Of a stretch of DNA of 32,000 nt, positions 20 to 30,527 are shown piece by piece; the stretch's first letter is position 1, and every line of letters begins with the position of its first letter. Source of the stretch: Pyrobaculum aerophilum str. IM2. GTDB taxonomy: Archaea; Thermoproteota; Thermoprotei; Thermoproteales; Thermoproteaceae. The stretch covers positions 1,290,001 through 1,322,000 of the forward strand of contig NC_003364.1 in NCBI RefSeq assembly GCF_000007225.1, in the 5' to 3' direction. The notes beneath the pieces are model-generated. The model was given only the letters and a program-made list of their open reading frames with translations, was not told the origin of the DNA and did no database searches. A program made the position numbers and the translations under genes.

Positions 20-1216
20 TTACCTAGCCCCTCTGCCGAGTTTTTTATGCGCAGAGGCAAGCTCATTTCTAGCCAGGGCTATTAGTAAGTTCAACTCCCC
101 AGCCAATACGGCCGCTGCGATTATTTCTGCGAATTTCAAAGCGTTAACGCCGGGGGGATTGCCGGAGCCGGCCACGCCCAACAGCTCCAACGCCTCGCGC
201 TGTGTGGGTAGCCCAGTGCCGCCGCCGACCGTGCCGACTTCTAAACTCGGCAAGAACACAGATATGTACAGCCCATCCTCCCGCGCCTCCGTGGAGGTAA
301 TGCCCATGCTCGACTCAACTACCTGGGCCACGTCTTGGCCTGTGGCGATGAATATTGCGGCGATTATGTTTGCAAAATGGGCGTTGAATCCGTAGGAGTG
401 GGCCAGCGCAGAGCCTATTAGGTTTTTCCTAACATTTACGTTATGAACATCCTCGGGGGTAATGCCTAGTCTTTCCAGTATCTCTTTCTTAATTACTGCC
501 TCAGCCACTACAGTCTTGCCCCTCCCTAATATGAAGTTAACAGCATTGGCCTTTTTGTCTACGCACATGTTGCCGCTAAGCGCAATTAGCTTGGCCTTAG
601 GGAAGTTCTCTTGAATAAACTTGGCAACGGCCTCTGAGGCAATAGTGACCATGTTCATCCCCATTGCATCTCCCGTGGAGAAGACCAGCCTAAGCCATAC
701 GTAATTTCCGACGATAAAATGCTGTATATCCTTAAGCTTTCCAAAACGCGTTGTAGATTCTGCTACTTTTTTCAACTCTTCGAAATGACCCGTGACCCAC
801 TCCACTAACTCCACGGCGTCGATAAGCGATGGGACTCTAAAAAGGGGGGCCCGCGCCATGCCGTCTTTTAACACCTTAACCCTCGCGCCCCCAGACTCCG
901 TGACGAATTTAGCGCCTCTATTAACAGAGGCCACAAGCGCGCCCTCTGTTGTGGCCAAAGGCACGTAGAAGTAACCGTTGGCGTAATCCCCCCTCACTAA
1001 GAGGGGGCCGGCCACTCCCACGGGGATCTGCACCGCCCCTATGACGTTTTCAATATTTCTCCCCACTACTGTGTTCAAGTCAATTATAGTCCTTCCTATA
1101 TTTTCCAGCTTGACGCCTGTCACTTTTTCTAAATACTGCCGTCTAGCCTCTGCGGCCTTATTCGCATCGCCATATACTTTTTCAAACTCGTGTAGTTTTA
1201 CTTCCATTAGAAACAT
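20..1216 (-). CDS. hmgA: 3-hydroxy-3-methylglutaryl-CoA reductase (class I, archaeal)
   Basis: 398-aa ORF. Family motifs seen by eye: [42 protein letters not shown] and C-terminal LASAHKKL. A second in-frame ATG at 1207 lies about 25 nt from a TATA-like box in the 1217-1244 spacer, so the leaderless start may be 1207. Confidence 0.95.
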
Positions 1217-1244
1217 TTTAATAAGTTGGCTTTATAACTCTTCG
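1217..1244. promoter_or_regulatory. Divergent promoter spacer (two TATA-like boxes) between hmgA and the thiolase-like gene
   Basis: 28-nt AT-rich spacer ttttaataagttggctttataactcttcg. attttaataag is centred about 26 nt upstream of ATG 1245. ttataaag (minus strand) is centred about 25 nt upstream of ATG 1207. This is consistent with leaderless transcripts. Confidence 0.5.
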
Positions 1245-2351
1245 ATGAAAGACGTATACATAGTAGGCGGAGCCCTTTATCCAGCCGGCAGGCATTACGA
1301 TAAAAACCTCGACGACATGGCCGCTATAGTTTTAGATAAAGCTCTTACAGACGCAAAGACAGATATCGATGCGGTTTTCGTTGCATCTTCAACTACAGAG
1401 TTGGCGAATAAACAACAAATACTAGGGGCCTATATACTGGAGTCTCTTGGCATTGACAAAGTGCCAGTTTTCAGAGTGGAAAACGGCGATGGTTCTGGCA
1501 GCGCCGCCATAGCCCTGGCTTATTACGCGTTGAGATCAGAGGAGTACAACTGCGTTGCCGTTGTTGGCGTGGATAAGCCCAACGACGTTCTCAGCAATCA
1601 GCAACAAGATATTTACGCGACTACACTAGATACATACTTTGAGAGGTATTTCGGCTTCACGCCGCTATCCCTTGCCGCGTTAATGGCAAAGACGTACTTA
1701 AAAAAATATGAATACAAGTATGAGGATCTCGCCAGATGGGCCGTCCTAATGCATGCGCACGGGGCGAGCAACCCATACGCTTATTTTAAACGCCCGATAA
1801 AACTTGAAGACGCATTAAACAGCGAATTAGTCAGCGAACCGCTTCGCTTATATGACGTAGGTCCCTTAGCCGACGGCGCCGCGGCAGCTGTGTTGTGCAA
1901 CAACAGGCGAGAAGGTCCCAAGATATATTCAACTGCAACGGCGACAAATACCACTAGTTTTAACTCCAGAGGCGAGTACGACGTCTTATACAGCCTTCAA
2001 GAGGCGGCTAGACAGGCGTTGAACAAAGCCGGGATTACTCCAAGAGATATAGCCACCGCAGAAGTTCACGACTCCTTCTCTATATTTGGAGTCCTCGCCT
2101 TAGAAGGGCTTGGCATTGTGAAGAGGGGGGGCGCGTTGGCGGCCTTGAGAGAGGGAGATCTGCCTGTTAATCTCAGCGGCGGCTTTAAATCAAGAGGCAA
2201 TATGCTCGGGGCCACTGGCGTCTACCAGTTGGTAGAAGTGGCTTGGCAGTTATTGGGAAAGGAGTTTAAACGAGTAGACGGCAACTACGGAGTAATCCAC
2301 AGCATGGGAGGCGTGGATAGAATTTCGACAGTAGTTGTATTAGGTTTATGA
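1245..2351 (+). CDS. Thiolase-fold protein (acetyl-CoA acetyltransferase family, SCP2-type) with substituted catalytic residues
   Basis: The track ORF 1041..2351 overlaps hmgA. The plausible start is ATG 1245 (MKDVYIVGG...), giving 368 aa. Thiolase-like blocks: RVENGDGSGSAAIALAY, SEPLRLYDVGPLADGAAAAVL, EVHDSFSIFGVLALEGLG, VNLSGGFKSRGNMLGATG. It occupies the operon position upstream of DUF35 and HMGCS. See the finding on D82/S277/N319. Confidence 0.85.
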   Translation: MKDVYIVGGALYPAGRHYDKNLDDMAAIVLDKALTDAKTDIDAVFVASSTTELANKQQILGAYILESLGIDKVPVFRVENGDGSGSAAIALAYYALRSEEYNCVAVVGVDKPNDVLSNQQQDIYATTLDTYFERYFGFTPLSLAALMAKTYLKKYEYKYEDLARWAVLMHAHGASNPYAYFKRPIKLEDALNSELVSEPLRLYDVGPLADGAAAAVLCNNRREGPKIYSTATATNTTSFNSRGEYDVLYSLQEAARQALNKAGITPRDIATAEVHDSFSIFGVLALEGLGIVKRGGALAALREGDLPVNLSGGFKSRGNMLGATGVYQLVEVAWQLLGKEFKRVDGNYGVIHSMGGVDRISTVVVLGL

Positions 2352-2384: not shown

Positions 2385-2786
2385 ATGAAACACGAGTCCG
2401 TGCCTATATACTGGCGGAATATTCCACAGTACTACCGCCTGGTGGCCAAGAGATGTAAAAAGTGCGGCGCCGTTTACTACCCGCCTGTGGTGAGGTGTAG
2501 ATGCGGCTCAAGAGAGCTAGAAGATGTGGAGCTTCCCAAAGAGGGGAGGCTATTAGAATACACAGTGCTTCACCAAGTCGGCAGTGATTTTTTAAAACAG
2601 AAACCGTTGATCTTGGGATTAGTGGAGCTGGCAAATGGGATCAGAGTCGCGGGACAGATAGTCGATGTTCAGCCAGACAAACTCGCCCCCGGGGTGAAGG
2701 TGGAAGTGGTATTTAGAAGAGTAGTGGTAGATGGAAAACACGGCCTCGTCATGTACGGCTACAAGTTCAGGCCCGTGGGGTTATGA
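2385..2786 (+). CDS. DUF35 zinc-ribbon/OB-fold protein (scaffold subunit of the archaeal thiolase/HMG-CoA synthase complex)
   Basis: 133 aa. Four-Cys ribbon [19 protein letters not shown] followed by an OB-like C-terminal half ([20 protein letters not shown]). The stop overlaps the HMGCS start (ATGA, 2783-2786). Confidence 0.85.
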
Positions 2787-3835
2787 GCAAAGTCGGCATT
2801 GTTAGCTGGGGCGCCTACATACCGAAATATCGCATTAGGACTGAAGAAGTCGCAAGGATTTGGGGCGATGACCCGCTCCGCATAGTTGACGTATATCTCG
2901 TTGACGAGAAAAGCGTAGAGAGCCTAGATGAAGACGCCGTGACGATCGCGGTGGAGGCGGCTAGAAGGGCACTAAAGAGAGCTGGGATAAATCCGAAGCG
3001 CATAGGAGCTGTGTACGTCGGCACTGAGTCAAAGCCCTACGCCGTTAAGCCCATTTCCTCTATATTAGTAGACGCACTGGGGCTGAGCAATAACGTTTTT
3101 GCCGTAGATATGGAGTTTGCCTGCAAGGCAGGCAGCGAAGGCCTCGTGGCAGCCATTGGGCTAGTGGAGTCCGGGCGAATAGAATACGGCATGACTGTCG
3201 GCACGGACACCTCGCAAGGCGAGCCCGGGGAACACTTGGAGTATTCAGCCAGCAGCGGGGGGGCGTCTTTAATTGTCGGCAGAGACGGCGTCGTGGCAGA
3301 ACTTGAGGCCGTGTATTCTTACGTGTCAGACACTCCCGACTTCTGGAGGAGGGAGGGATCGCCGTATCCCATGCACGGCGAAGGCTTCACCGGCGAGCCT
3401 GCCTATTTCAGGCATATAATCGGCGCAGCTAGGGGATTAATGGAAAGATACGGCTACAAGCCGTCTGACTTCGCCTATGTAGTATTTCACCAACCTAACG
3501 GCAGGTTCCCAGTCCGCGCCGCCTCTATGTTAAACATACCCATGGAAAAGGTAAAGCCAGGCATAGTGGTAACGCACATAGGCAATACCTACAACGCCTC
3601 AGCGCTGATGGGCTTCGCCAAAGTATTAGATATTGCAAAACCCGGCGACAAAATACTCCTAGTGCCTTTTGGCAGCGGCGCTGGCTCAAACGCGTTCGTC
3701 TTCACAGTCACAGAACTAATAACTGAGAGGCAGAAATCGGGCGTGCCTACGGTAGAAGATATGTTACGCGATAAAATATATATTGATTACGCGCAATATT
3801 TAAAAATGAGGAAGATGATTAAATTATTCGAATAA
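2783..3835 (+). CDS. Hydroxymethylglutaryl-CoA synthase (archaeal type)
   Basis: 350 aa. Catalytic-triad contexts are present: VGTESKPY (Glu), [11 protein letters not shown] (Cys), [11 protein letters not shown] (His). C-terminal block [11 protein letters not shown]. Translationally coupled to DUF35. Confidence 0.9.
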
Positions 3836-4949: not shown

Positions 4950-5282
4950 ATGGGCGGAAAGAAAAAGCCAACTCTAAGCCAGCTGGCAAAAAAGGCTGAG
5001 AAGGAAAAGGCTCAACAGGCGCAGAAGGCTAAAAAGGAAGTGAAGAAGGAGGAAACGCCGGCGAAGAGGACTATACAAGTTCTTGATGAAAAAGTGTTTC
5101 AAGCTATTGCAAAAGAGGTACAGAATATGAGAGTTATCACGCCTTATGAAATTGCCTCTAAATACGGCATAAAGATGTCAGTGGCGTTTAAAGTCTTGAG
5201 GAATTTAAAGGAGAGAGGCGACTTAGTGCTAGTAGCAAAGGGCCATAGGACGGAGATTTACGTGCCCGCCAAGAGGAGCTAA
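4950..5282 (+). CDS. rps25e: 30S ribosomal protein S25e
   Basis: 110 aa. Lys-rich N-terminus followed by a winged-helix core VITPYEIASKYGIKMSVAFKVLRNLKERGDLVLV. TATA-like aagcttttaataacgg lies about 25 nt upstream. Confidence 0.9.
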   Translation: MGGKKKPTLSQLAKKAEKEKAQQAQKAKKEVKKEETPAKRTIQVLDEKVFQAIAKEVQNMRVITPYEIASKYGIKMSVAFKVLRNLKERGDLVLVAKGHRTEIYVPAKRS

Positions 5283-5437
5283 AGGGTATTTTTATTGCCC
5301 GTCTGAAATAATTTAAGTTGGTCTCGGCTTCTGTCTCATTGCCAGTCTTTTTTTAACGTCTCTGCCAACGCCGTTGCAGATCCTAAGCCCTCTGTAAGGC
5401 TAGCATTACACTTATAAACCGGCGAGTTGATAGGGCC

Positions 5438-6328
5438 ATGTTCTGCATCTCGTTGCAAGAATGCATAGAGAATATAAAGCCAAGGCAAATATTAGTGGCC
5501 TCAAGCCCTTTGGGGGGTTTGGGCGTCTTGGCCCTCGCCCAGTCCGTCAAACTAACTGTGGCTACTTCAGGCCCCGTTTTTAACAAAATCGCAGTTCTCG
5601 AGGCAATTGACAACTACGGCGCCGAGGTGAGATATGTGCCCAAGCTCCACACGGCGATATACAAGCTCATAGGAGATAGGGAATGTTGGGTAGCGGGCCC
5701 CCCACTAATTAAGTCAGTAGTCGCCGGCAACTCCACCTCCTTCGCCGTATATACATGCGCTAAAATAGAGGGGTTTGAAAAACTCCTCACTAGCGGCAAG
5801 CCAATAGAGGCGCTCAGCTCAAAGGTGTTAGGCGGCGGGAGAGACGGGCGGGATTTTGACGTAGTAGTCCAGCTCAGAGCTCTCCAAATTAAGGGAGACG
5901 ATGAGGAGGACATTGCAGATAGAATTATAAGAAGCGGCGCGGTTGGCGTCGACGACCTTGACGTAGTTTCCCAATTGTTGTGGCGCATTGCAGTTAAGTG
6001 GAGGAATAGATCTGCAGTAATCTATAGAGATCTAAATGTGGGTTTGGGCATAACAATACCAATGCTTTACTATTCAGTGAAAGTTATAGCGTCGGGCAAG
6101 GACTGCCCAGAGGGAAAGTGCGTTAAAACCACGACAAAATTAATTGAGCGGGCGCTGAGGTTGGCCCCCCCGGCTAAAATACACGAGGCATGGCAAACAG
6201 CGTTGAGAGAGCCGCAAATGAGGAGGCGCATAGAAGAAAGCCCGTATTTACCCGCAGTACTCCTCCTAACGGGGAAAGTGGACGTGAAATACGAGGGAGG
6301 CAGAGTTTATACGCTTAGATCTACCTAG
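5438..6328 (+). CDS. Hypothetical protein; N-terminal half resembles a degenerate PLD-like (HKD) fold
   Basis: 296 aa. ATG is 22 nt after TATA-like cttataaa (5412-5419). The segment ILVASSPLGG...GAEVRYVPKLHTAIYKLIGDRECWVAGPPLIKSVVAGNSTSF resembles the PLD pattern LHaKiyl..d...a.vGSaNlt.....N.E. The HxK Lys and the GSxN motif are not conserved. The fold assignment is inference only. Confidence 0.5.
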   Translation: MFCISLQECIENIKPRQILVASSPLGGLGVLALAQSVKLTVATSGPVFNKIAVLEAIDNYGAEVRYVPKLHTAIYKLIGDRECWVAGPPLIKSVVAGNSTSFAVYTCAKIEGFEKLLTSGKPIEALSSKVLGGGRDGRDFDVVVQLRALQIKGDDEEDIADRIIRSGAVGVDDLDVVSQLLWRIAVKWRNRSAVIYRDLNVGLGITIPMLYYSVKVIASGKDCPEGKCVKTTTKLIERALRLAPPAKIHEAWQTALREPQMRRRIEESPYLPAVLLLTGKVDVKYEGGRVYTLRST

Positions 6329-7442
6329 TGATTTCCCGCCACGTGAGGCCTAGAGAATCTGCATATCTATAGGCCTCTTCCATCTCCTCTTCTGAAACTC
6401 TTCTCTTAATCTCCCTATAGCGATTCAGCTTCTCGACAAGATATTCGGGCCGGTATTGATCCATAATGTTCACAAGGGCATGGTTGCAATTCTCGGCGAG
6501 CCATCTCAGCACAGGTTTTGTGCAACACTCCACGTGGCCAGGCAACACTAAGTGGCGCACAATTATGTCTTCGCGCCTCTTGCAAATCACTGAGAAATTC
6601 CTGGTGGTGACCTCCCAACAGCGGGGAGCCACCGAATACCTCAAGGCGTGGGCGTCGTTTCCATATTTAAAATCGGGAAGCCATATATCTATTACGTGGA
6701 GAATAAGCGCGAGGCCCTCGGGGGTTAAATACATATTCGAATTCCACAACTGCGGCACATTAACCCCCCTTCTCGCAAGTATTCTAAGGGATTCAAGTAT
6801 ATACGGTATATTAGGCGTAGGCTCTCCGCCGACCCAGTTGATGTTACGAGCTCCCTCTTCTCTCAGCTTGGCTTGAATTGCCGCCAGGGCTTCAGCGGTT
6901 ACCTCAATGCCCGATTCTGAAAATTGCGAAATGTCCCAGTTCTGACAATAGACGCATCGGAAGTTGCAACCGGAGAAGAACACAGTGCCGCTGGGAACCA
7001 AAGGCGCCTCTTCGCCGAGGTGGTGGAAGAAACTAGCCACTCGCGGCTTGGCGTCTAGAAGACACGCTCCTTTTTTAGAGTATCTATCAACCCCGCACCT
7101 CCTCTCGCAGAGCATACAGCGTTTAAGTTGCCTCTTGGCGAGCTCTATCTTCACGTCGAGAAAAGAAGCCTTGGGGAGCTCTCGCCTCGTGAGGGATATA
7201 TCAGGGCGCTCCTTTTGGCGGCGCCACTCCTCGTCAAACGCGCGTCCAAGCTCGTCGTGCAACTTCCACAAACTGGAGTCGTCCATAGAGGCGTAGTCAT
7301 GAGGCGCCTCCACTCTAGCCGCTATGTGGAACTTAGCCGGCGCGGTATCTCGCATCACGGAGTAATACCATCTAAGCCGCTCTCTCACTACGGGTTCTTG
7401 CCAAATCGCCACGGCGTCAGGCCTGTAGATAATCCACGACAC
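6321..7442 (-). CDS. Radical SAM enzyme, PflX / AmmeMemoRadiSam-type (pyruvate formate-lyase activase-like)
   Basis: 373 aa. Radical SAM triad CNFRCVYCQNWDIS. Upstream Cys cluster CMLCERRCGVDRYSKKGAC, typical of this subfamily. About 108 aa of N-terminal extension. The 3' end overlaps the convergent 5438..6328 ORF by 8 nt. Confidence 0.85.
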   Translation of the reverse strand: MSWIIYRPDAVAIWQEPVVRERLRWYYSVMRDTAPAKFHIAARVEAPHDYASMDDSSLWKLHDELGRAFDEEWRRQKERPDISLTRRELPKASFLDVKIELAKRQLKRCMLCERRCGVDRYSKKGACLLDAKPRVASFFHHLGEEAPLVPSGTVFFSGCNFRCVYCQNWDISQFSESGIEVTAEALAAIQAKLREEGARNINWVGGEPTPNIPYILESLRILARRGVNVPQLWNSNMYLTPEGLALILHVIDIWLPDFKYGNDAHALRYSVAPRCWEVTTRNFSVICKRREDIIVRHLVLPGHVECCTKPVLRWLAENCNHALVNIMDQYRPEYLVEKLNRYREIKRRVSEEEMEEAYRYADSLGLTWREITR

Positions 7443-9051: not shown

Positions 9052-9594
9052 GTGGAGTGCAACGCAGTCGTGGAATATCTGGGAGAGAGAGGCATATATG
9101 CGGAGAGGAAGTGGGTTGAGCTAGTGGTGGCCTCAGTTGGCGCGTTGAGAATAGGATTCTGGTGCCCGCGCGAGGAGTTTCCGACATTTGACGATATTGA
9201 TGATTTGAAAAAATCTCTTTACATAGACTCACTAGACGTGCTGGTGGTCGTGTCTTACAGGCCCTATGTGTTAGTGGACTATCTCAGCTCGCTTTTGGAG
9301 CGGGCCCACAGGTGGTACGGAGTACAGTTCGATGTAAAGCTACTGGGCGTAAGTTCCGTTGATCTCGAGACTGGGTTAGAGGAGGCGCTGGGCAGGGCGA
9401 TGGTTGAAAAGCCGCATAAACTGGGGGGAGGCGTAAAGTCTGAGTACAGATGTCCACAGTGTACAAAAGAATACCTGTACCTCTACAGACAGGAGAGGTA
9501 CTTCTCCAGAAAGTATAGAGGCAGAGTTGTGGAGAGTATATATGGGTGTCCCGCCTGTAGCTTTAGGGCTAGGAGAGTTGAGCTGTTAGACTAG
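9052..9594 (+). CDS. Hypothetical protein with a C-terminal 2xCxxC zinc ribbon
   Basis: Track ORF 8887..9594. I prefer the leaderless GTG 9052 (VECNAVVEYLGERGIY...), which gives 180 aa. The C-terminus has CPQC-x28-CPAC. The N-terminal E..V.EYL..RG pattern is faintly nuclease-like but not supportable. Confidence 0.55.
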   Translation: MECNAVVEYLGERGIYAERKWVELVVASVGALRIGFWCPREEFPTFDDIDDLKKSLYIDSLDVLVVVSYRPYVLVDYLSSLLERAHRWYGVQFDVKLLGVSSVDLETGLEEALGRAMVEKPHKLGGGVKSEYRCPQCTKEYLYLYRQERYFSRKYRGRVVESIYGCPACSFRARRVELLD

Positions 9595-10476
9595 GGGGCG
9601 GGCGTCAGGAAACAGCGTCTTTACGACTTTCCTCAAAAGGCTTGGCAACTGGCTTTTACTAACCCTTTCTTTAATAATAGTCACGGCGGCCTCTCTGTGG
9701 CCTCCCCCAGCCCCCAGCGATGCGGCTAACATTGCCACGTTTAAATCCCGCGATCTAAACACCAAGTGTACCCCGTCTTTTTTTAGCGAGGCCACTATCG
9801 CCACTCTACACCCCACTGATTGGAGTAAATTAGCCAGATCTGCCTCATGCACGCCTACAAATGATGTACATATTATGCCGACAGACGATTTGTACACCTC
9901 TAGCCTCTTCATGCCCTTTAACAAAGCCATCGTCACATGGATTTCTCTTCCTCTCTCCTCTGGACCTACGACGTCGCCTAAAGCACTCCCTATTTTGTTT
10001 AACAGAACGGCTAGTCGCTTAAAAGTCTCCCCGTCGGCTCTTCTCAGCCTCCCAGTGTCTGTATATATTCCCAGTACGGCCAATTTAGCAACGTCAGGCG
10101 GGATATCAATTCCAGCTTCTTCCGCCAGCATTAACGCCACCTCGGTACAGCTCGGCCTGTTTACAACTATGCCAGGAATTTCGTCGCCAATTACGTGGTG
10201 ATCTATCTTCACACACCTCCCGCAAACAGGAGGTATTTGGCTAACCGAAGCCACATCTGCTAAGACGTATAAATCGACGTCTTTAGGGACCTCTTCGACA
10301 CATCCGCCGAGAGGAGACCCCTCAGGACATACCACTGCAGCCACGTTCACCCCCAGTCTTTTTATCACCAGCTCTAATATTTTAGCGCATGCCAACGCGT
10401 CTGCATCTGCCCTACGGTGTGTTATTACAGCTACTCGCGCAACTCCCCTCAAAAGGCCTTTTAACTCCTCCAACAT
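9586..10476 (-). CDS. DHH-family phosphoesterase (NrnA/RecJ-like, small archaeal form)
   Basis: 296 aa. Motifs: ITHRRADADALA (DxD), LADVAS, KIDHHVIGD (DHH), and C-terminal GGGHREAA (GGGH). Confidence 0.8.
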   Translation of the reverse strand: MLEELKGLLRGVARVAVITHRRADADALACAKILELVIKRLGVNVAAVVCPEGSPLGGCVEEVPKDVDLYVLADVASVSQIPPVCGRCVKIDHHVIGDEIPGIVVNRPSCTEVALMLAEEAGIDIPPDVAKLAVLGIYTDTGRLRRADGETFKRLAVLLNKIGSALGDVVGPEERGREIHVTMALLKGMKRLEVYKSSVGIICTSFVGVHEADLANLLQSVGCRVAIVASLKKDGVHLVFRSRDLNVAMLAASLGAGGGHREAAVTIIKERVSKSQLPSLLRKVVKTLFPDARPLV

Positions 10477-19640: not shown

Positions 19641-19783
19641 AAATATCGCAAGGCTTAGTCTTGCGCCGGCCAGCTAGACGCCGCGCGTTAATTCGCGACG
19701 CCACAGACAAGCGGAGAGCAAAGAGCGGGTTTTACACGGCGTTAAAACTTATATAATTTGCCGTGTGGCTCGTCGTGACTTCA

Positions 19784-21367
19784 ATGTATGCGTACGAAGC
19801 GTTGCCTGTAGCTGAGTGGTTTCGTCGAAATAGGGAGCTGGCGGGTTTCCACAATCCCACAAGGGCGTTGTACCAGACTATAAGAGAGCTTACTGAGAAC
19901 TCCCTAGACGCCACTGAGACTTACGGAATACTTCCCACGATTTACCTCAGGGTGAATATTGAAGACGAGCAGAAGGGGTGGGTTTCGGTTTATGCCGAGG
20001 ACAACGGCATTGGCATACCCGGTAACGAGATTCCCAACGTCTTCGGCCGAGTCTTTTACAGTAGTAAGTATAAAATAAAGCAACACAGGGGAGTGTTCGG
20101 CCTGGGCCTTAAAATGGTGGTGTTGTACTCCCAGAGCACTACTAACAAGCCGGTCTTGGTGAGATCGGCAACTCTCAAATCCGATAAAATTTATGAGTAC
20201 CAGATAATGATTGATACCAACAGCAACAGCCCAATTATCCTTGACAGAAGAGAATACCCCAATAGATACAAATGGCACGGCACAGCGGTTAAGGTATACT
20301 TAGAGGGGAATTGGCTAGCGGCTAAAAAACGTATAGAGGATTACCTCAAGAGGACGGCGATTATCGCGCCTTATGCAGAAATTGTGTTCAAAGGACCCGA
20401 TTTAGAGCTTTGGCTAAAAAGGAGGACCACTAAGCTCCCGCCCGCGCCTAAGGAGGGCTTGCCCCATCCCAAAAGCGTAGACGTCGATACGTTAAAACAA
20501 ATGATACAGGAAAGCAGGGGGCTGACATTACTAGAGTTTTTAATGGAGAATTTCGACGCCGTAGGGGAGGGGACGGCAAAAGCGTTTTTAGAATGGGCTG
20601 GTTTTAATCCAAACGCAAAGGTTACGGCGTTGACCCCAGAGGAGCTCGTCAAGCTCGTGGATAAGATGAAACAATACGAGGGCTGGCGGAGGCCTCGCTC
20701 AGACTGGCTCTCCCCCGCCGGCGCAGAGCTGTTAGAAATAGGCGCAAAGGCAATACTGGGAGCCGAGGCTGTATTCGCCATCACTAGGAAGCCTGAGTCT
20801 TACGGCGGACACCCCTTTATTGTCGAGGCGGCAGTTGCATGGGGCGGCCAAATACCGCCGGCGGATAAACCGCTTTTACTCCGCTACGCCAATAAAATAC
20901 CGTTGCTCTACGACGAAGGCGCAGACGTGGCCAGGAAAGTAGTAGACGAGTTCAACTGGCAGAATTACAAAGTGAAATTCCCGGCGCCTCTCGCAGTTAT
21001 TATACACGTCTGTTCGACCAAAATCCCCTACGCCTCGGCTGGTAAAGAGGCCATCGCCGAAGTCCCCGAGATTGAGAAAGAGATGAAGCTAGCTCTGAGA
21101 GACGCCGCCAAGAAGCTAAGGCTTTACTTATCCAGGAAGGAAAAAGAAATGGAGATGTTAAATAAGTATATATCACTAGCAAAATATGTAGAAGAAATCG
21201 CCTATAATCTATCAATGATAACTAGAATAGAAAAAGAATCTCTTGCAAAGAATTTACATACACTAATAGAGCGGAAAATAGGCTTGACGATAGAGGAACT
21301 AGTCAAACACACACTGTCCATGTCCTCAACGTCGCAAGAGGAAGTTGTTGAAGCGACACCTCAATAA
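19784..21367 (+). CDS. top6B: DNA topoisomerase VI subunit B
   Basis: Bergerat ATPase motifs RELTENSLDA, EDNGIGIP and GVFGLGLK, followed by the transducer domain. The track starts at GTG 19763. ATG 19784 fits the TATA cttatataat (19748-19757). Confidence 0.95.
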   Translation: MYAYEALPVAEWFRRNRELAGFHNPTRALYQTIRELTENSLDATETYGILPTIYLRVNIEDEQKGWVSVYAEDNGIGIPGNEIPNVFGRVFYSSKYKIKQHRGVFGLGLKMVVLYSQSTTNKPVLVRSATLKSDKIYEYQIMIDTNSNSPIILDRREYPNRYKWHGTAVKVYLEGNWLAAKKRIEDYLKRTAIIAPYAEIVFKGPDLELWLKRRTTKLPPAPKEGLPHPKSVDVDTLKQMIQESRGLTLLEFLMENFDAVGEGTAKAFLEWAGFNPNAKVTALTPEELVKLVDKMKQYEGWRRPRSDWLSPAGAELLEIGAKAILGAEAVFAITRKPESYGGHPFIVEAAVAWGGQIPPADKPLLLRYANKIPLLYDEGADVARKVVDEFNWQNYKVKFPAPLAVIIHVCSTKIPYASAGKEAIAEVPEIEKEMKLALRDAAKKLRLYLSRKEKEMEMLNKYISLAKYVEEIAYNLSMITRIEKESLAKNLHTLIERKIGLTIEELVKHTLSMSSTSQEEVVEATPQ

Positions 21368-21402
21368 GAAAAAATTTATTCTCTCTGTGATATAGCCCTT
21401 TT

Positions 21403-22506
21403 GTGAGCACCCGATCGGAGTTCCTTAAGCGCTTAGAGTCGTGGGGTACTCAGCTGGCGAAGGCGATTCTTGAACTGGAGGAGCCGATAATGGAGATCCC
21501 TGCGAGGACTTTATCTAACACTATATGGGACGAAAAGGCGAGGATGTTAAAGCTAGGCCCCGAGAAGTTGCACCGGAGGTTTTTAGACGTGAAAGAGGCG
21601 AGGAAGTTCATGCAGACGGTATTAATGCTGAGGCTAATAGTCGAGGCTATTAGAGAAGACGTATACCCAACTATTCGTGACCTGTATTACAACGGGAAAC
21701 ACACCATAGTGTTTAAAGATCCCTTAGGCAGGACACATAGGGAAAACACTTGGGATGAGCAGTCGGAGTCAAACGCCGTTATTGAAGACATCGAGGTGGC
21801 CACAAACGTGTTGAGGGAAGAAATGGGGGTATCTGCAGACGTCAAGGGGAAGATAGTGGGGCCTATAGTGGTGAGATCGCAAGGATATGAGCTTGACGCC
21901 AGCAAATTCGGCGAAACTGCTCTAAGCCTCCCAGTGAACGTCGACGCGCTGGAAATAGTAAAAGTGGAAGCGTCTTATGTACTGGTGGTGGAAAAAGACG
22001 CAATTTTCCAGCGCCTAGTTAGGGAGAAGTTCTGGAGCCAGGAGGGGGCTATTTTAGTGACTGCAAAGGGCATGCCCGACAGAGCCACGAGGAGATTCAT
22101 AAGGAGGCTAAACGAGGAGTACAAGCTACCGGTTTACGTCTTAACTGACGGAGATCCCTACGGGTGGTATATATACTCAGTTTACAAAAGCGGCTCGATT
22201 AAATTAAGTTATGAAAGCGAACGCCTGGCGACTCCCGACGCTAAGTTTTTGGGGCTAACCGCGACTGACATTGACACGTACAAAATATCAGATAATTACG
22301 TCATAGCGGCAAATGACAGAGACATTAAAAGAGCCCAGGAGTTGCTACGATACCCCTGGTTCCAAAAGCCAGAGTGGACTAGGGAGATAAACCTCTTTTT
22401 AAAGAAGAAGAAAAAAGTAGAAATCGAGGCTCTCTCAACCCACGGGCTTAAGTTTCTACACGACTATCTTAGGGACAAGATACGTAGCAAGAAGTTCATT
22501 GATTAG
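21403..22506 (+). CDS. top6A: DNA topoisomerase VI subunit A (Spo11 homologue)
   Basis: 367 aa from GTG 21403. Catalytic Tyr context IRDLYYNGKH. Toprim motifs VLVVEKDA and VLTDGDPYGWYI. Confidence 0.95.
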   Translation: MSTRSEFLKRLESWGTQLAKAILELEEPIMEIPARTLSNTIWDEKARMLKLGPEKLHRRFLDVKEARKFMQTVLMLRLIVEAIREDVYPTIRDLYYNGKHTIVFKDPLGRTHRENTWDEQSESNAVIEDIEVATNVLREEMGVSADVKGKIVGPIVVRSQGYELDASKFGETALSLPVNVDALEIVKVEASYVLVVEKDAIFQRLVREKFWSQEGAILVTAKGMPDRATRRFIRRLNEEYKLPVYVLTDGDPYGWYIYSVYKSGSIKLSYESERLATPDAKFLGLTATDIDTYKISDNYVIAANDRDIKRAQELLRYPWFQKPEWTREINLFLKKKKKVEIEALSTHGLKFLHDYLRDKIRSKKFID

Positions 22507-26507: not shown

Positions 26508-27998
26508 TTGCTGAAAGCGCTTGTCCCAGAGCTACCCACGTTGCACAAGCTTAGGGACGCCCTTGCAGAATTCGCCGACTCGTTTAGTGTTGTCACCAAC
26601 GAGGTGGTTAAAAGGGAATTCGGCATTGACTTGGCGTACGACGTGAGGAACAAAAGTTTTTCAAAAATAGAGGAAGCTGTCACAATGACAGAGGATTACG
26701 TCTACAAAAACATCGCCGTAAGGAGGGGGCCACTAGACACTAGCGGGGACTATCCGAAGACCGTAATCCGCTTGAAGCTGGGAGGGGAGGAGGTGGCCTA
26801 CATTAACATGTACTGGACTGGTATGGCACTACAAGCCAAGTTCGTCGGCTCTCGCGAAAACGTCGAACATCTGGCCTCTATCATCAGGGCACTTGGAGGT
26901 AAGGCGGAGATCAAACGCATGGGTAACGGATGGGGAGTTGAGCTCACCACAGACGGCATAATTGCCATTCGCCACAACGGTTGGCTGAATGCGGTGAGGA
27001 GCTTTGTGGAGGATCTTCGCGAGTACGGGAAGCGTCACGGCAAAGAGCTGATTAACAAGGAGAGGTATGAAAAGATAATTAAAGACATAGAGGCCGGCCC
27101 CAACACAGTTAAATTCGCCGGAGCGGAGTTCTCGGTTTATTATAAAGGTAGCAAAATAATGGTAGAATATCAACCGACTAGCGAGACGTCTAAAAACGCC
27201 GCTGTAAGCACGTTAAGGGCCAAAGGACTGAGGGAGGGAGAGCACTTCACTGTAACAAAACAAGGCGTTTACGAAATTCGCGTAACGGGCGAGTCGTATG
27301 CCAAGGCCGTTGAGGCGCTGGCGCAGAGCGGACTGAAAGAGGGCGAACAATACGCCGTTGATGGCAGAAGGCACGTAATCCGCGTCAAGGCGGAGCATAA
27401 AGACGCCGTTGTAAACGCCTTGAAGGCGGCAGGGCTGGGGGAGGGCAAACACTTCGCCACAAGGAGTAGCGGACACCACGTGATCCACATCACTTACGAT
27501 GGCCTTCGCGAAATTCAGCGCATGGCGCTAAAAGGCGATGTGGAGGCGGAGCACTTCATTAGGGGGCTTAAGGACGTTTTGAAACGCCGATACGGCGACG
27601 ATGCAGTGAAGAAGATGATAGAGGTGATTACGCCCGCGAGGGAGGAGGGGACGATAGAGCTACCGCTAGCGGCACGCGACGAAAAGGGCAGCGTGGTAGC
27701 CCGTATTGTTGGCCTGAAATACGAATTTGTTGAAAACGGCAAGCCCGTAAGCCAGTGTAGCGGAAAGGACTGCCGCCTCCGCATAATCGCGGAGTACGAA
27801 ACGGGAGCAGAAAGGGAGCAGTTCAAGATGGAGTGGTATTGGAAGAAGAAACTGGAAAAGAGGGGTGGGACAACGATTACGTATTACTACGAAATCGCTG
27901 TCATTTACCTCAAAGACGTAGTAGAAGTCGCCGTGTCGAAGGCGTTGACTGGGAAGGACGTAAAAAAGGCAATGTGCAACTCTATGCCAGCGATTTAG
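26508..27998 (+). CDS. Large lineage-specific repeat-containing protein (paREP2b-like, function unknown)
   Basis: 496 aa from TTG 26508. Contains tandem ~37-aa modules. Its size, its location next to a short divergent partner and my recollection of the Pyrobaculum paREP2 families suggest paREP2b, but this is not verified. The C-terminus appears frameshifted at an A6 run (see findings). Confidence 0.6.
   Translation: MLKALVPELPTLHKLRDALAEFADSFSVVTNEVVKREFGIDLAYDVRNKSFSKIEEAVTMTEDYVYKNIAVRRGPLDTSGDYPKTVIRLKLGGEEVAYINMYWTGMALQAKFVGSRENVEHLASIIRALGGKAEIKRMGNGWGVELTTDGIIAIRHNGWLNAVRSFVEDLREYGKRHGKELINKERYEKIIKDIEAGPNTVKFAGAEFSVYYKGSKIMVEYQPTSETSKNAAVSTLRAKGLREGEHFTVTKQGVYEIRVTGESYAKAVEALAQSGLKEGEQYAVDGRRHVIRVKAEHKDAVVNALKAAGLGEGKHFATRSSGHHVIHITYDGLREIQRMALKGDVEAEHFIRGLKDVLKRRYGDDAVKKMIEVITPAREEGTIELPLAARDEKGSVVARIVGLKYEFVENGKPVSQCSGKDCRLRIIAEYETGAEREQFKMEWYWKKKLEKRGGTTITYYYEIAVIYLKDVVEVAVSKALTGKDVKKAMCNSMPAI
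27189..27506 (+). repeat. Three tandem protein-level repeats (~37 aa each) inside the paREP2b-like ORF
   Basis: NAAVSTLRAKGLREGEHFTVTKQGVYEIRVTGES / YAKAVEALAQSGLKEGEQYAVDGRRHVIRVKAEH / KDAVVNALKAAGLGEGKHFATRSSGHHVIHITYDG. A weaker fourth copy lies upstream (HLASIIRALGGKAEIKRMGNGWGVELT). Confidence 0.65.
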
Positions 27999-28099: not shown

Positions 28100-29377
28100 T
28101 TGATGGCCCTCTCCGAGGCGGTAAGCAAACTCCCCGGCTTAAGGATTTACAACCCTCCTTACGGCGAGTTTACTATTTCTAAAGTCCTGAAGGAGTCTGA
28201 GGGGAGATGGACTCCTTTGTTTAAAGGCGTAAAACCCGGCTATGTGGGAGTTGGCAATATTATTGATACACGGGCTAAGTTGTATCAATACCTCGGCGCT
28301 AAAGACGATGAAGAAGCTTATAACAAATTACTATCAGCCGCCGAAAGCCCATTGGCTGTGGAAAAAGTATCGACGTGGCGTGATGTGTACAAAACTGTGG
28401 ACTCGCTTTACGACCTCCCCATGGTTAGGTATTACGAGAAAGAGGCCCGTCCGTATATAACGGCTGGGATTGTCATAGGGGCTGGGCCAGACGGAGTTTA
28501 TAACGCCTCGATACACAGGTTCTCGCCCGTGGGGAGCAGGAAGGCCGTCATAAGGCTCGTTCCCAGGCATTTATACCACATATACAAGTCGAGTATTGAG
28601 AGAGGAAGGGAGGTGCCTGTGGCAGTGGCGTGGGGAGTGCACCCATTGGTACTTCTCGCCGCAGCTTCCTCCCCGCCCTATGGCGTTTTTGAGCTAACAG
28701 TGGCGTCGCGCCTCATGGGGGGGTTAAAAGTCGTCGAGCTAGACAATGGAGCTCTGGCGCCTTTTTTGTCGTCGGTAATAATCGAGGGCTTTATAACTGC
28801 CGAACAAGCCGAGGAGGGGCCTTTTGTTGACATAGTCGGCGTATATGACAGAGTGAGGCTTCAGCCAGTTGTTAGAATTGAGAGAATATATGTGCTCCGG
28901 GAGGAGGCCTATGTCCACTACTTGTTGCCAGCGGGTTTAGAACATATGTTATTAATGGGCTTTGAGAGAGAGGCTAAGATATGGAGAGCGGTCAAGTCAG
29001 TGGTTCCGCGGGTGAAGAAGGTGAGGCTCACCAGAGGCGGCTTCGGCTGGCTAGTTGCTGTAATCTCGCTGGAGAAATCTGTGGAGGGTGATGCTAAAAA
29101 CGCCTTGTTAGCCGCCTTTGCGGCGCATCCCAGTTTAAAAATCGCAATCGCCGTCGATAGCGATATAGACCCCGACGATCCTCTTGACGTGGAGTGGGCC
29201 ATAGCCACAAGGCTTAGAGCTGATAGGGGGCTTTTCGTAATACCCTACGCCAGAGGATCAACTCTCGATCCCGTCGCTTTAAACGAAGAGGGCTTGACTT
29301 ATAAAATAGGAATAGACGCAACGAGACCGCTTGACGCAGATCCCGTCCTTTTTGAGCGTGCCCGAATACCGGAATAG
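28100..29377 (+). CDS. UbiD-family decarboxylase; by context, candidate anhydromevalonate phosphate decarboxylase of the archaeal mevalonate pathway
   Basis: 425 aa (TTG 28100, or ATG 28103 with a better-placed TATA gcttaaaag). UbiD-like blocks YITAGIVIGAGPDGVYNASIHRF, AVIRLVPRHLYHI and PFVDIVGVYD. It lies immediately upstream of the AcnX large and small subunit genes. Confidence 0.8.
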   Translation: MMALSEAVSKLPGLRIYNPPYGEFTISKVLKESEGRWTPLFKGVKPGYVGVGNIIDTRAKLYQYLGAKDDEEAYNKLLSAAESPLAVEKVSTWRDVYKTVDSLYDLPMVRYYEKEARPYITAGIVIGAGPDGVYNASIHRFSPVGSRKAVIRLVPRHLYHIYKSSIERGREVPVAVAWGVHPLVLLAAASSPPYGVFELTVASRLMGGLKVVELDNGALAPFLSSVIIEGFITAEQAEEGPFVDIVGVYDRVRLQPVVRIERIYVLREEAYVHYLLPAGLEHMLLMGFEREAKIWRAVKSVVPRVKKVRLTRGGFGWLVAVISLEKSVEGDAKNALLAAFAAHPSLKIAIAVDSDIDPDDPLDVEWAIATRLRADRGLFVIPYARGSTLDPVALNEEGLTYKIGIDATRPLDADPVLFERARIPE

Positions 29378-29405: not shown

Positions 29406-30527
29406 GTGTCGCGGTATTTCGCGCGTGAAGTGGTTTTAAAAATAGCCGATGCGGTGTCTGGAGGCGAGGTAGTGCCAGTGGAGACGGCCCACATATCGGG
29501 CGTGTCTTATTTCACAATAGGAGAGTATGGAGTAGAATTTCTCGAATTTCTTGCAAGCTCCGGGGCCAGGGTGTCGGTGTTCACAACGTCTAACCCCGCC
29601 GTTGTGGATATAAGCGGCTTTCTGGCTGTGGATGAAAAGATGGCAAGAGGCCAAGAGAGGATATACAAGGCGCTGAGATCGATGGGCGTGAGCGTCACAT
29701 ACTCGTGTACGCCCTACGAGTTTATTCTGACAAGATCGCGCACGTTTCACGCGTGGGCTGAGTCCAGCGCCGTTGCATATATTAACACTTTTCGCGACGC
29801 GTGGTCAGATAAGAACCCAGGGCCATTGGCGTTATTAGGCGCTATCGCTGGGTTTGTGCCAAAAACTGCTTTATACACCCTGGAGGGGAGGCGCCCTACA
29901 GCAGTAGTGGAAATAGAACACGGCCCCTTAGAGGCTTTGGAGGCTGGGATTGTGGGGGCTGTTTTGGGAGAGCGTATGGGGTTCGGCATACCTTATATCA
30001 GAGGTGCCTTGTTTGCAGACGAAGAGAGCAGGCGGGAGTTTGCCGCATCTCTATCCACTTATTCCGCCATGGTTTTTGCAGTAATTGAGGGGATTACTCC
30101 CAATTGGCGCCAGTATTTAGAAATTGCCGACTTCCGGGACAAATTCAAGATAGATTCCAGGGACATATCAAGTTATTTAAAAGACGCGGAGACGCCCGAC
30201 GTAATATACTTCGGCTGCCCATTTGCTGATATCGATACTGTGTTGTGGGTGTTGAGTGAAGTGAAAAAGAGGGGGCCTGCCAGGAGGCCGATATACATTT
30301 CCACGTCCCCCGGCGTGTATGGACAGATAAGAAAACTCGCGGATGAGATGAGGGAGTACAACGTGAATATATTCTCGGGGTCGTGTTTAGTAGTCTCGCC
30401 GTATACTAGGAATTTTAAAGTCGTTGCGACAGATTCGCTTAAGGCGGCTTTTTACATACCTAGATTACATGGAGTAAGAGTAGTCCCGTGTAGACGTATG
30501 GGATGTCTAGAGTTGGCATATGCTTAA
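29406..30527 (+). CDS. Aconitase X large subunit (DUF521); candidate phosphomevalonate dehydratase large subunit
   Basis: 373 aa from GTG 29406. DUF521-like N-terminus VETAHISGVSYFTIGEYGVEFLEFLASSGARVSVFTTSNP. Several conserved-looking Cys residues. 8-nt overlap with the small subunit gene. Confidence 0.8.
   Translation: MSRYFAREVVLKIADAVSGGEVVPVETAHISGVSYFTIGEYGVEFLEFLASSGARVSVFTTSNPAVVDISGFLAVDEKMARGQERIYKALRSMGVSVTYSCTPYEFILTRSRTFHAWAESSAVAYINTFRDAWSDKNPGPLALLGAIAGFVPKTALYTLEGRRPTAVVEIEHGPLEALEAGIVGAVLGERMGFGIPYIRGALFADEESRREFAASLSTYSAMVFAVIEGITPNWRQYLEIADFRDKFKIDSRDISSYLKDAETPDVIYFGCPFADIDTVLWVLSEVKKRGPARRPIYISTSPGVYGQIRKLADEMREYNVNIFSGSCLVVSPYTRNFKVVATDSLKAAFYIPRLHGVRVVPCRRMGCLELAYA

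Follow-up and report, generated by a model that had tools for sequence, protein, structure and literature searches.

The 32,000-nt stretch of the Pyrobaculum aerophilum str. IM2 genome analysed here (contig NC_003364.1, positions 1,290,001 to 1,322,000; hereafter the window, numbered from its first letter) carries a group of upper mevalonate pathway genes, of which the first gene of a three-gene operon is the subject of this report. That gene (1245..2351, forward strand; ATG at 1245, stop codon ending at 2351) encodes a thiolase-fold protein of 368 amino acids that matches the ‘thiolase family protein’ of P. aerophilum (P0001) at 100% identity. A longer open reading frame (ORF) called mechanically from 1041 was discarded as an artefact; orthologues and PDB alignments all begin at MKDVY (1245). 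The second gene, on the same strand, encodes a DUF35 protein with a four-Cys zinc ribbon and an OB fold (2385..2786; Pfam zf-ChsH2 and OB_ChsH2_C), and its stop codon overlaps the start codon of the third, 3-hydroxy-3-methylglutaryl-coenzyme A (HMG-CoA) synthase (HMGCS; 2783..3835, forward strand; NCBIfam equivalog NF003274, 569 bits against a cut-off of 244). HMG-CoA reductase (HMGR; 20..1216, reverse strand; Pfam HMG-CoA_red, E 1e-138) diverges from the thiolase-like gene across a gap of 28 bp. No further thiolase gene was found in the window, and no extra pathway genes lie beside the operon. An earlier sequence-only reading of this DNA had proposed that the operon encodes a non-catalytic thiolase-like subunit. 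Judging from its sequence, the product of 1245-2351 is most likely no longer a thiolase.

The fold itself is not in doubt, and the earlier assignment of a thiolase fold encoded together with DUF35 and HMGCS was borne out by domain content, structure prediction and gene order. Pfam places Thiolase_N (PF00108) and Thiolase_C_1 (PF22691) in the ORF product. An AlphaFold2 (AF2) model built from a 74-sequence alignment reached a predicted local distance difference test score (pLDDT) of 96.1, and its best PDB match in Foldseek was 6ET9_C, with a template modelling (TM) score of 0.96, a root-mean-square deviation of 1.4 Å and 32% identity. Family models respond differently: the protein is thiolase-like but falls under every NCBIfam cut-off, scoring 223.7 against 600 for NF053570, the Methanothermococcus thermolithotrophicus-type equivalog, and 316.3 against 420 for PRK06064, a model that the Pyrodictium operon thiolase passes at 449.5. 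Set beside archaeal complex-type thiolases, the protein has the fold and the DUF35/HMGCS linkage but has neither the nucleophilic Cys, nor the His of the GHx motif, nor a score above the family cut-off. With pseudoenzyme subunits it shares the absence of catalytic residues, purifying selection and a conserved association with an active partner.

The three catalytic columns can be read directly from the DNA, with positions and codons as the sequence-only reading had given them. Where the CxS motif has its acyl-accepting Cys, the protein carries Asp82 (gat, 1488..1490, forward strand); the HDxF motif reads H275-D276-S277-F278 (2067..2078, forward strand), with His and Asp kept and Ser at x (tcc, 2073..2075); and Asn319 (aat, 2199..2201, forward strand) fills the His column of the GHx motif. 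In HMMER alignments, D82 pairs with the Cys of ‘AACAS’ in both 7YVY (P. furiosus) and 6ESQ (the M. thermolithotrophicus complex), N319 pairs with the His of G-H-P/A in the solved structures, and S277 occupies the x position of HDxF, held by Cys in 6ESQ and by Ala in 7YVY. These alignments place no Cys or His of the protein at columns 82 and 319, as had been claimed; the flanking motifs SGxAA, EVHD.F and SGG.K.RG..GATG make the placement unambiguous, and sequence-based and structure-based alignments agree. According to PMC12960953, CxS, HDxF and GHx are the defining motifs of archaeal acetyl-CoA acetyltransferases (ACATs), and mutation of the HDxF His abolishes activity.

All 47 Cys-type operon thiolases surveyed have Cys and His at columns 82 and 319. 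The x of HDxF behaves differently. It is Cys in most active operon thiolases and in none of the Cys-less operon sequences, so both cysteines are lost together; it is also Ala in some operon thiolases with intact Cys and His (Thermococcales, Pyrodictium), and S277 alone is therefore not diagnostic. The earlier statement that all three catalytic positions are substituted thus stands for the nucleophilic Cys and the GHx His and needs softening for the HDxF position, which is not Cys in every intact relative. Since there is no acyl-accepting thiol, the covalent ping-pong mechanism would be unavailable, and the protein would on this ground not be a thiolase.

We considered whether the catalytic Cys had been relocated and rejected this. 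The protein has only two cysteines, C103 (1551-1553) and C218 (1896-1898), which are invariant in the 26 orthologues that carry Asp82 and Asn319 (the D/N clade), vary in other thiolases and are sometimes paired elsewhere. The AF2 model puts them at the distal ends of core strands 103-110 and 210-218. Judged from the fold, they more likely face away from the pocket as a structural pair, and a structural disulfide, such as has been reported for Pyrobaculum proteins, may join them.

The two partner genes look intact, as the sequence-only reading had noted. HMGCS has the complete tetrad E82/C114/H236/N268, at columns that are invariant in the HMGCS alignment; E-C-H-N is given as the HMGCS catalytic tetrad in PMC12960953. 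DUF35 keeps its Cys set (C24, C27, C38 and C40).

Conservation of the substituted residues in related genomes, a check that the sequence-only reading had proposed, turned out to be complete among the orthologues recovered: all 26, which come from Pyrobaculum, Thermoproteus, Caldivirga and relatives and are as little as 44% identical, carry Asp82 and Asn319. Written as the residues at the nucleophile, HDxF and GHx columns, P. oguniense is D/S/N and a Caldivirga sp. D/T/N; elsewhere in Thermoproteales column 319 holds Phe (Thermocladium) or Tyr (locus L014). Loss of the catalytic residues is fixed across the order. The ORF is full-length and intact in every genome examined, and the same substitutions are seen in independent genomes and metagenome-assembled genomes (MAGs). 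Median pairwise ratios of nonsynonymous to synonymous substitution (dN/dS, Nei-Gojobori) are 0.09 for the thiolase-like gene, 0.057 for HMGCS, 0.069 for HMGR and 0.060 for DUF35, and from this purifying selection we infer that the thiolase-like gene is functional. Gene order is conserved as well, with divergent HMGR followed by thiolase-like, DUF35 and HMGCS genes in 12 Pyrobaculum and Thermoproteus loci and the three-gene order also kept in Caldivirga and Thermocladium. The operon is broken up in some Thermoproteales: in Vulcanisaeta distributa (L018, CP002100, 1891052-1900101) neither a thiolase-like nor a DUF35 gene lies within 4 kb of HMGCS, and L014 has a D/T/Y thiolase-like gene beside HMGR, without DUF35 or HMGCS.

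Despite this constraint the protein has drifted further than its HMGCS partner. We divided the distance of the thiolase-like protein to Cys-type operon thiolases by the distance of its linked HMGCS to theirs; the resulting divergence ratio is 1.39, against 1.05 +/- 0.06 among Cys-type operons, which fits a release from catalytic constraint. Cys/His-type operon thiolases have 103 positions with a conservation of at least 90%; the protein keeps 66 of these residues and replaces 37, among them C82, H319, P320, M112, N353 and G358. Invariance within the D/N clade is concentrated in what were the active-site loops (44% of loop positions invariant, against 12% elsewhere), which indicates that the pocket region is still under constraint and in use.

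Loss of the nucleophile is not confined to Thermoproteales. In a metagenome sample of 80 HMGCS loci, ordered by similarity to the Pyrobaculum HMGCS, a thiolase homologue adjoins HMGCS in 63, of which 49 have the Cys and 14 (22%) do not; the replacements in the latter are G (5), D (3), E (3), S (1), A (1) and N (1). Exact-sequence look-up assigned some of the Cys-less copies to Methanomassiliicoccaceae (G/S/D), Verstraetearchaeota (G/D/A), Thermoplasmata (A/S/N) and Sulfolobales (E/S/H). The HMGCS-adjacent ‘acetyl-CoA acetyltransferase’ of Candidatus Methanomassiliicoccus intestinalis from the human gut (L069/P0410) is G/N/D, and its exact sequence occurs on 188 contigs. A Sulfolobus MAG has the order HMGCS, thiolase-like gene (D/S/Y), DUF35 and HMGR, the same order in which Pyrodictium carries an intact C/A/H thiolase. 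In a neighbour-joining tree, which is indicative only, the Cys-less sequences fall into at least four separate groups. One loss must be recent, given that the D/S/H operon thiolase homologue of L031 (metagenome contig Ga0190360_1001162) is 79% identical to the C/C/H operon thiolase of L037 (metagenome contig WOR8_10009522); the pair offers a natural ‘before and after’ for the loss of the Cys. A wider survey drew on 1.84 billion proteins and took from their 50%-identity clusters the 150 nearest representatives. The Cys is missing from 85 of them, with D in 24, S in 16, G in 14, E in 11, P in 6 and other residues in the rest, so that Asp or Glu (35 of 85) is the commonest replacement and D, S, G, N and T together make up 60 of the 85.

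Two bacterial cases came up alongside these surveys. A Dehalococcoidia MAG (L012) carries tandem thiolase homologues near HMGCS, at 4992-7400 and 9055-10044, of which one is intact at the three columns (C/A/H) and one has lost all catalytic residues (G/L/F); the pair may, from these residues, be an active/inactive heterodimer in a bacterium. A cluster of Chloroflexi thiolase homologues (P0040; Anaerolineae MAG, JGI metagenomes) has S at the nucleophile and D at the His column, and HMGCS-named members are listed in the same 90% cluster, probably through an oddity of clustering or gene fusion.

The closest characterised system is the thiolase of the M. thermolithotrophicus complex (6ESQ, 6ET9; Vögeli et al. 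2018), which has the same fold and three-gene linkage; both His and Asp of HDxF, as well as the SGG.K and GATG loops, are also present in the P. aerophilum protein. In the latter, Asp takes the place of the nucleophilic Cys, Ser that of the Cys in HDCF and Asn that of the GHx His, and it differs from complex-type thiolases at 34 more near-invariant active-type positions. The same tripartite HMG-CoA synthase (HMGS)/ACAT/DUF35 architecture is described for the bacterial systems PhlABC, MucABC and P. fluorescens ACAT/HMGS-DUF35 (PMC12960953, PMC6392133). In these complexes one of the two subunits of the thiolase superfamily is described as dead yet kept, as we propose for P. aerophilum, in mirror image: the bacterial HMGS-like subunit is dead and the ACAT Cys kept, whereas in P. 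aerophilum Cys and His are missing from the ACAT-like subunit beside an intact HMGCS. The PhlC/MucB C-acyltransferases (Friedel-Crafts) are reported to keep the Cys and the GHx His and to have lost HDxF, the opposite of the P. aerophilum pattern.

All structural neighbours discussed next have the SCP2-thiolase fold and were matched by the P. aerophilum model: the Ltp2 and Sal steroid aldolases, the trypanosomal SCP2-thiolase-like protein TbSLP, and the S. tokodaii ‘thiolase-like protein’ ST0096 (4YZO). We take the nucleophilic Cys to be missing from Ltp2, Sal and TbSLP; DUF35 is a partner of Ltp2 and Sal. In ST0096 the nucleophile column holds Ser and the His of GHP is kept; our full-text literature search found no paper on 4YZO. 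None of the four is linked to HMGCS. We also considered ST0096 as the Sulfolobus operon subunit and rejected it, as BLAST places it nearer euryarchaeal-type sequences than the Sulfolobus operon copy; it is probably another paralogue. The aldolases and the SLP are described as having a Tyr in a YDxF/Y motif (PMC12329534), where the VHDSF of the P. aerophilum protein has His275.

Taken together, we consider it reasonably probable on sequence grounds that the thiolase-like protein is no longer a thiolase, has been retained as the partner of HMGCS, and that acetoacetyl-CoA comes from elsewhere. In the archaeal complex the CoA site is reported to be formed jointly at the thiolase/HMGCS interface, and of the subunits alone ACAT is insoluble and HMGS inactive (PMC12960953, PMC12329534; papers citing Vögeli et al. 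2018). Retention of the protein and the constraint on its pocket would be explained by this sharing of the CoA site and by the inactivity of HMGCS on its own. We infer that a complex forms, that the thiolase-like subunit would stay in it with HMGCS and DUF35 to build the interfacial CoA pocket and support assembly, and that HMGCS may need it to bind CoA substrates and assemble. The subunit would then probably be an obligatory and still ligand-binding partner, possibly docking acyl-CoA; the Cys-less thiolase fold TbSLP (5AB6, a Foldseek match of the model) can still bind acetoacetyl-CoA. As to the vacated site, the nucleophile column directly precedes helix 84-97 in the AF2 model. The residues D, S, G, N and T, which dominate the replacements, are those favoured at helix N-termini, and the recurrent Asp at this column may thus reflect stabilisation of the emptied position.

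Under this interpretation acetoacetyl-CoA would be supplied by a separate enzyme, for example a ketothiolase paralogue acting on its own, and would not be produced and channelled within the complex. In P. neutrophilum the acetoacetyl-CoA ketothiolase has been assigned as Tneu_0249 (PMC3189178); the P. neutrophilum orthologue of the thiolase-like gene lies at 1.21 Mb of the 1.77-Mb genome and is by that position presumably a different gene. S. acidocaldarius has seven ketothiolase/DUF35 pairs. P0046, which we examined as a possible crenarchaeal paralogue, was rejected: it lies on a bacterial contig, with sigma-70 and exosortase genes nearby, that has its own HMGR-HMGCS-DUF35-thiolase cluster.

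The sequence-only reading had speculated that the thiolase activity became dispensable through the dicarboxylate/4-hydroxybutyrate cycle, an intermediate of which is acetoacetyl-CoA. We find no support for this link. P. aerophilum is without succinyl-CoA reductase and succinic semialdehyde reductase and is an obligate heterotroph (PMC12794621). P. oguniense and Caldivirga maquilingensis are without the complete cycle (PMC12794621 Table 1), yet P. oguniense and a Caldivirga sp. show the substitutions given above. Conversely, Pyrodictium belongs to a cycle-using group and keeps its operon thiolase intact in Cys and His. Comparable Cys loss is found in Methanomassiliicoccus intestinalis, Thermoplasmata and Verstraetearchaeota, groups for which we know of no 4-hydroxybutyrate cycle.

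Several observations weigh against a non-thiolase HMGCS partner fed from outside. An intact Pyrobaculum thiolase paralogue was not found among the 120 matches listed for a 7YVY query, which were all from Thermococcales. HMGCS stands alone in V. distributa, so the partner may not be strictly obligatory. Many of the replacements in the protein are themselves invariant polar residues (D82, D110, N113, Y180, D358, E52 and E156), a pattern that would also fit a new active site. The independent recurrence of Asp or Glu at the nucleophile column could reflect selection for chemistry and not only for stability.

The last two points lead to enzymatic alternatives. One, which we rate as rather unlikely, is that the protein has been neofunctionalised and that its remodelled pocket (D82, H275, D276, N319, D358, Y180 and others) catalyses another acyl-CoA reaction; this could be the kind of decarboxylation carried out by KSQ/CLF ketosynthases and TbSLP, on malonyl- or acetoacetyl-type substrates, or a hydrolysis or lyase reaction that feeds or regulates HMGCS. 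The invariance of the polar replacements in 26 orthologues and the former active-site loops being the most conserved part of the protein count in its favour. So does the formal likeness of H275/N319 to what we take to be the His/Asn pair of KAS III-type condensing enzymes. Thiolase folds that act without the nucleophile are moreover known, in the Ltp2 and Sal aldolases and in decarboxylation by TbSLP (PMC12329534). A shared new chemistry is nevertheless hard to see in the residue sets, which vary by Cys-less lineage (D/N, D/Y, D/F, D/H, E/H, G/D, A/N and S/H at the nucleophile and GHx columns) and include no common new catalytic set. Even within Thermoproteales column 319 drifts between N, F and Y and is thus unlikely to have gained a conserved catalytic role; the Tyr base of the aldolases is absent, with H275 in its place, and the operon has no accompanying pathway genes.

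A narrower alternative keeps the thiolase reaction and exchanges its nucleophile: Asp82 would form an acetyl-aspartyl mixed anhydride, in the manner of CoA-transferases, in place of acetyl-Cys. We regard this as very improbable. It draws on the same Asp/Glu preference (35 of 85), which has arisen in several separate groups, L031 included, and on Methanomassiliicoccus intestinalis, whose small genome has a Cys-less operon copy while the organism still needs acetoacetyl-CoA; that copy, however, has Gly rather than Asp. Gly, Ala, Pro and Asn, which many Cys-less lineages have at this column, cannot be nucleophilic, so the mechanism cannot apply to the Gly, Ala and Pro lineages. Beyond this, the acid/base Cys has gone as well, the oxyanion-hole His is replaced, and the position just before helix 84-97 gives Asp a purely structural reason to be there. 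To our knowledge a carboxylate-nucleophile thiolase has no precedent in the thiolase superfamily. Should some Cys-less genomes contain no other thiolase, either Asp/Glu subunits would use such a novel mechanism or archaeal lipids would draw on an unrecognised route to acetoacetyl-CoA, an outcome we think doubtful. That the gene is a decaying, functionless relic, or its substitutions an alignment or sequencing artefact, has a negligible likelihood in our judgement. The protein does evolve about 1.4 times faster than its HMGCS partner predicts and scores below all curated cut-offs, but the full-length ORFs, the dN/dS of 0.09, the identical substitutions in independent genomes and MAGs, the agreement of the alignments and the pLDDT of 96 effectively refute it. 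A retained partner of HMGCS that is no longer a thiolase is thus the natural interpretation as far as the sequence goes: the thiolase fold persists without Cys and His, conserved and under purifying selection, in keeping with the non-catalytic subunit first proposed.

Other features of the window provide context for the locus. The 28-bp gap between the divergent thiolase-like and HMGR genes (window 1213-1244) contains two A/T-rich, TATA-like elements, TTTTAATAA (~1216-1224) and TTTATAA (1232-1238), one for each start codon at a distance of ~20-25 nt. This arrangement suggests back-to-back promoters and leaderless transcripts, and the second Met of HMGR (M4) may be its real start. Further along, a UbiD-family gene (28100-29377) and an AcnX gene (29406-30527) adjoin one another. 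We take these to be the families of the anhydromevalonate-phosphate decarboxylase and the phosphomevalonate dehydratase of the archaeal-type mevalonate pathway, in which case the window would hold upper and lower mevalonate genes ~25 kb apart. Ordinary context is provided by a PaRep2b family gene (26508-27998), whose repeat protein family takes its name from P. aerophilum, and by the genes for topoisomerase VI subunits B and A (19763-22506).

Archaeal membranes depend entirely on the mevalonate pathway, the first step of which, the thiolase condensation, is strongly endergonic, and in the current view acetoacetyl-CoA is channelled inside a near-universal archaeal thiolase/HMGCS/DUF35 complex. 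Our full-text literature searches turned up no account of archaeal HMGCS-linked thiolases that have lost catalytic residues. A 2026 Nature Communications paper presents the archaeal complexes as near-universally conserved and functional and describes only the opposite, bacterial case of a dead HMGS-like subunit. If whole orders (Thermoproteales, Sulfolobales, Methanomassiliicoccales and others) do have a dead thiolase subunit, the channelling view fails for them, and the source of acetoacetyl-CoA for their membrane lipids becomes a testable question. Automatic ‘acetyl-CoA acetyltransferase’ annotations, and the metabolic models built on them, would then be wrong for the thiolase step. Together with PhlABC and MucABC, the P. 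aerophilum operon would mean that either catalytic partner can be lost while the architecture of the complex is kept.

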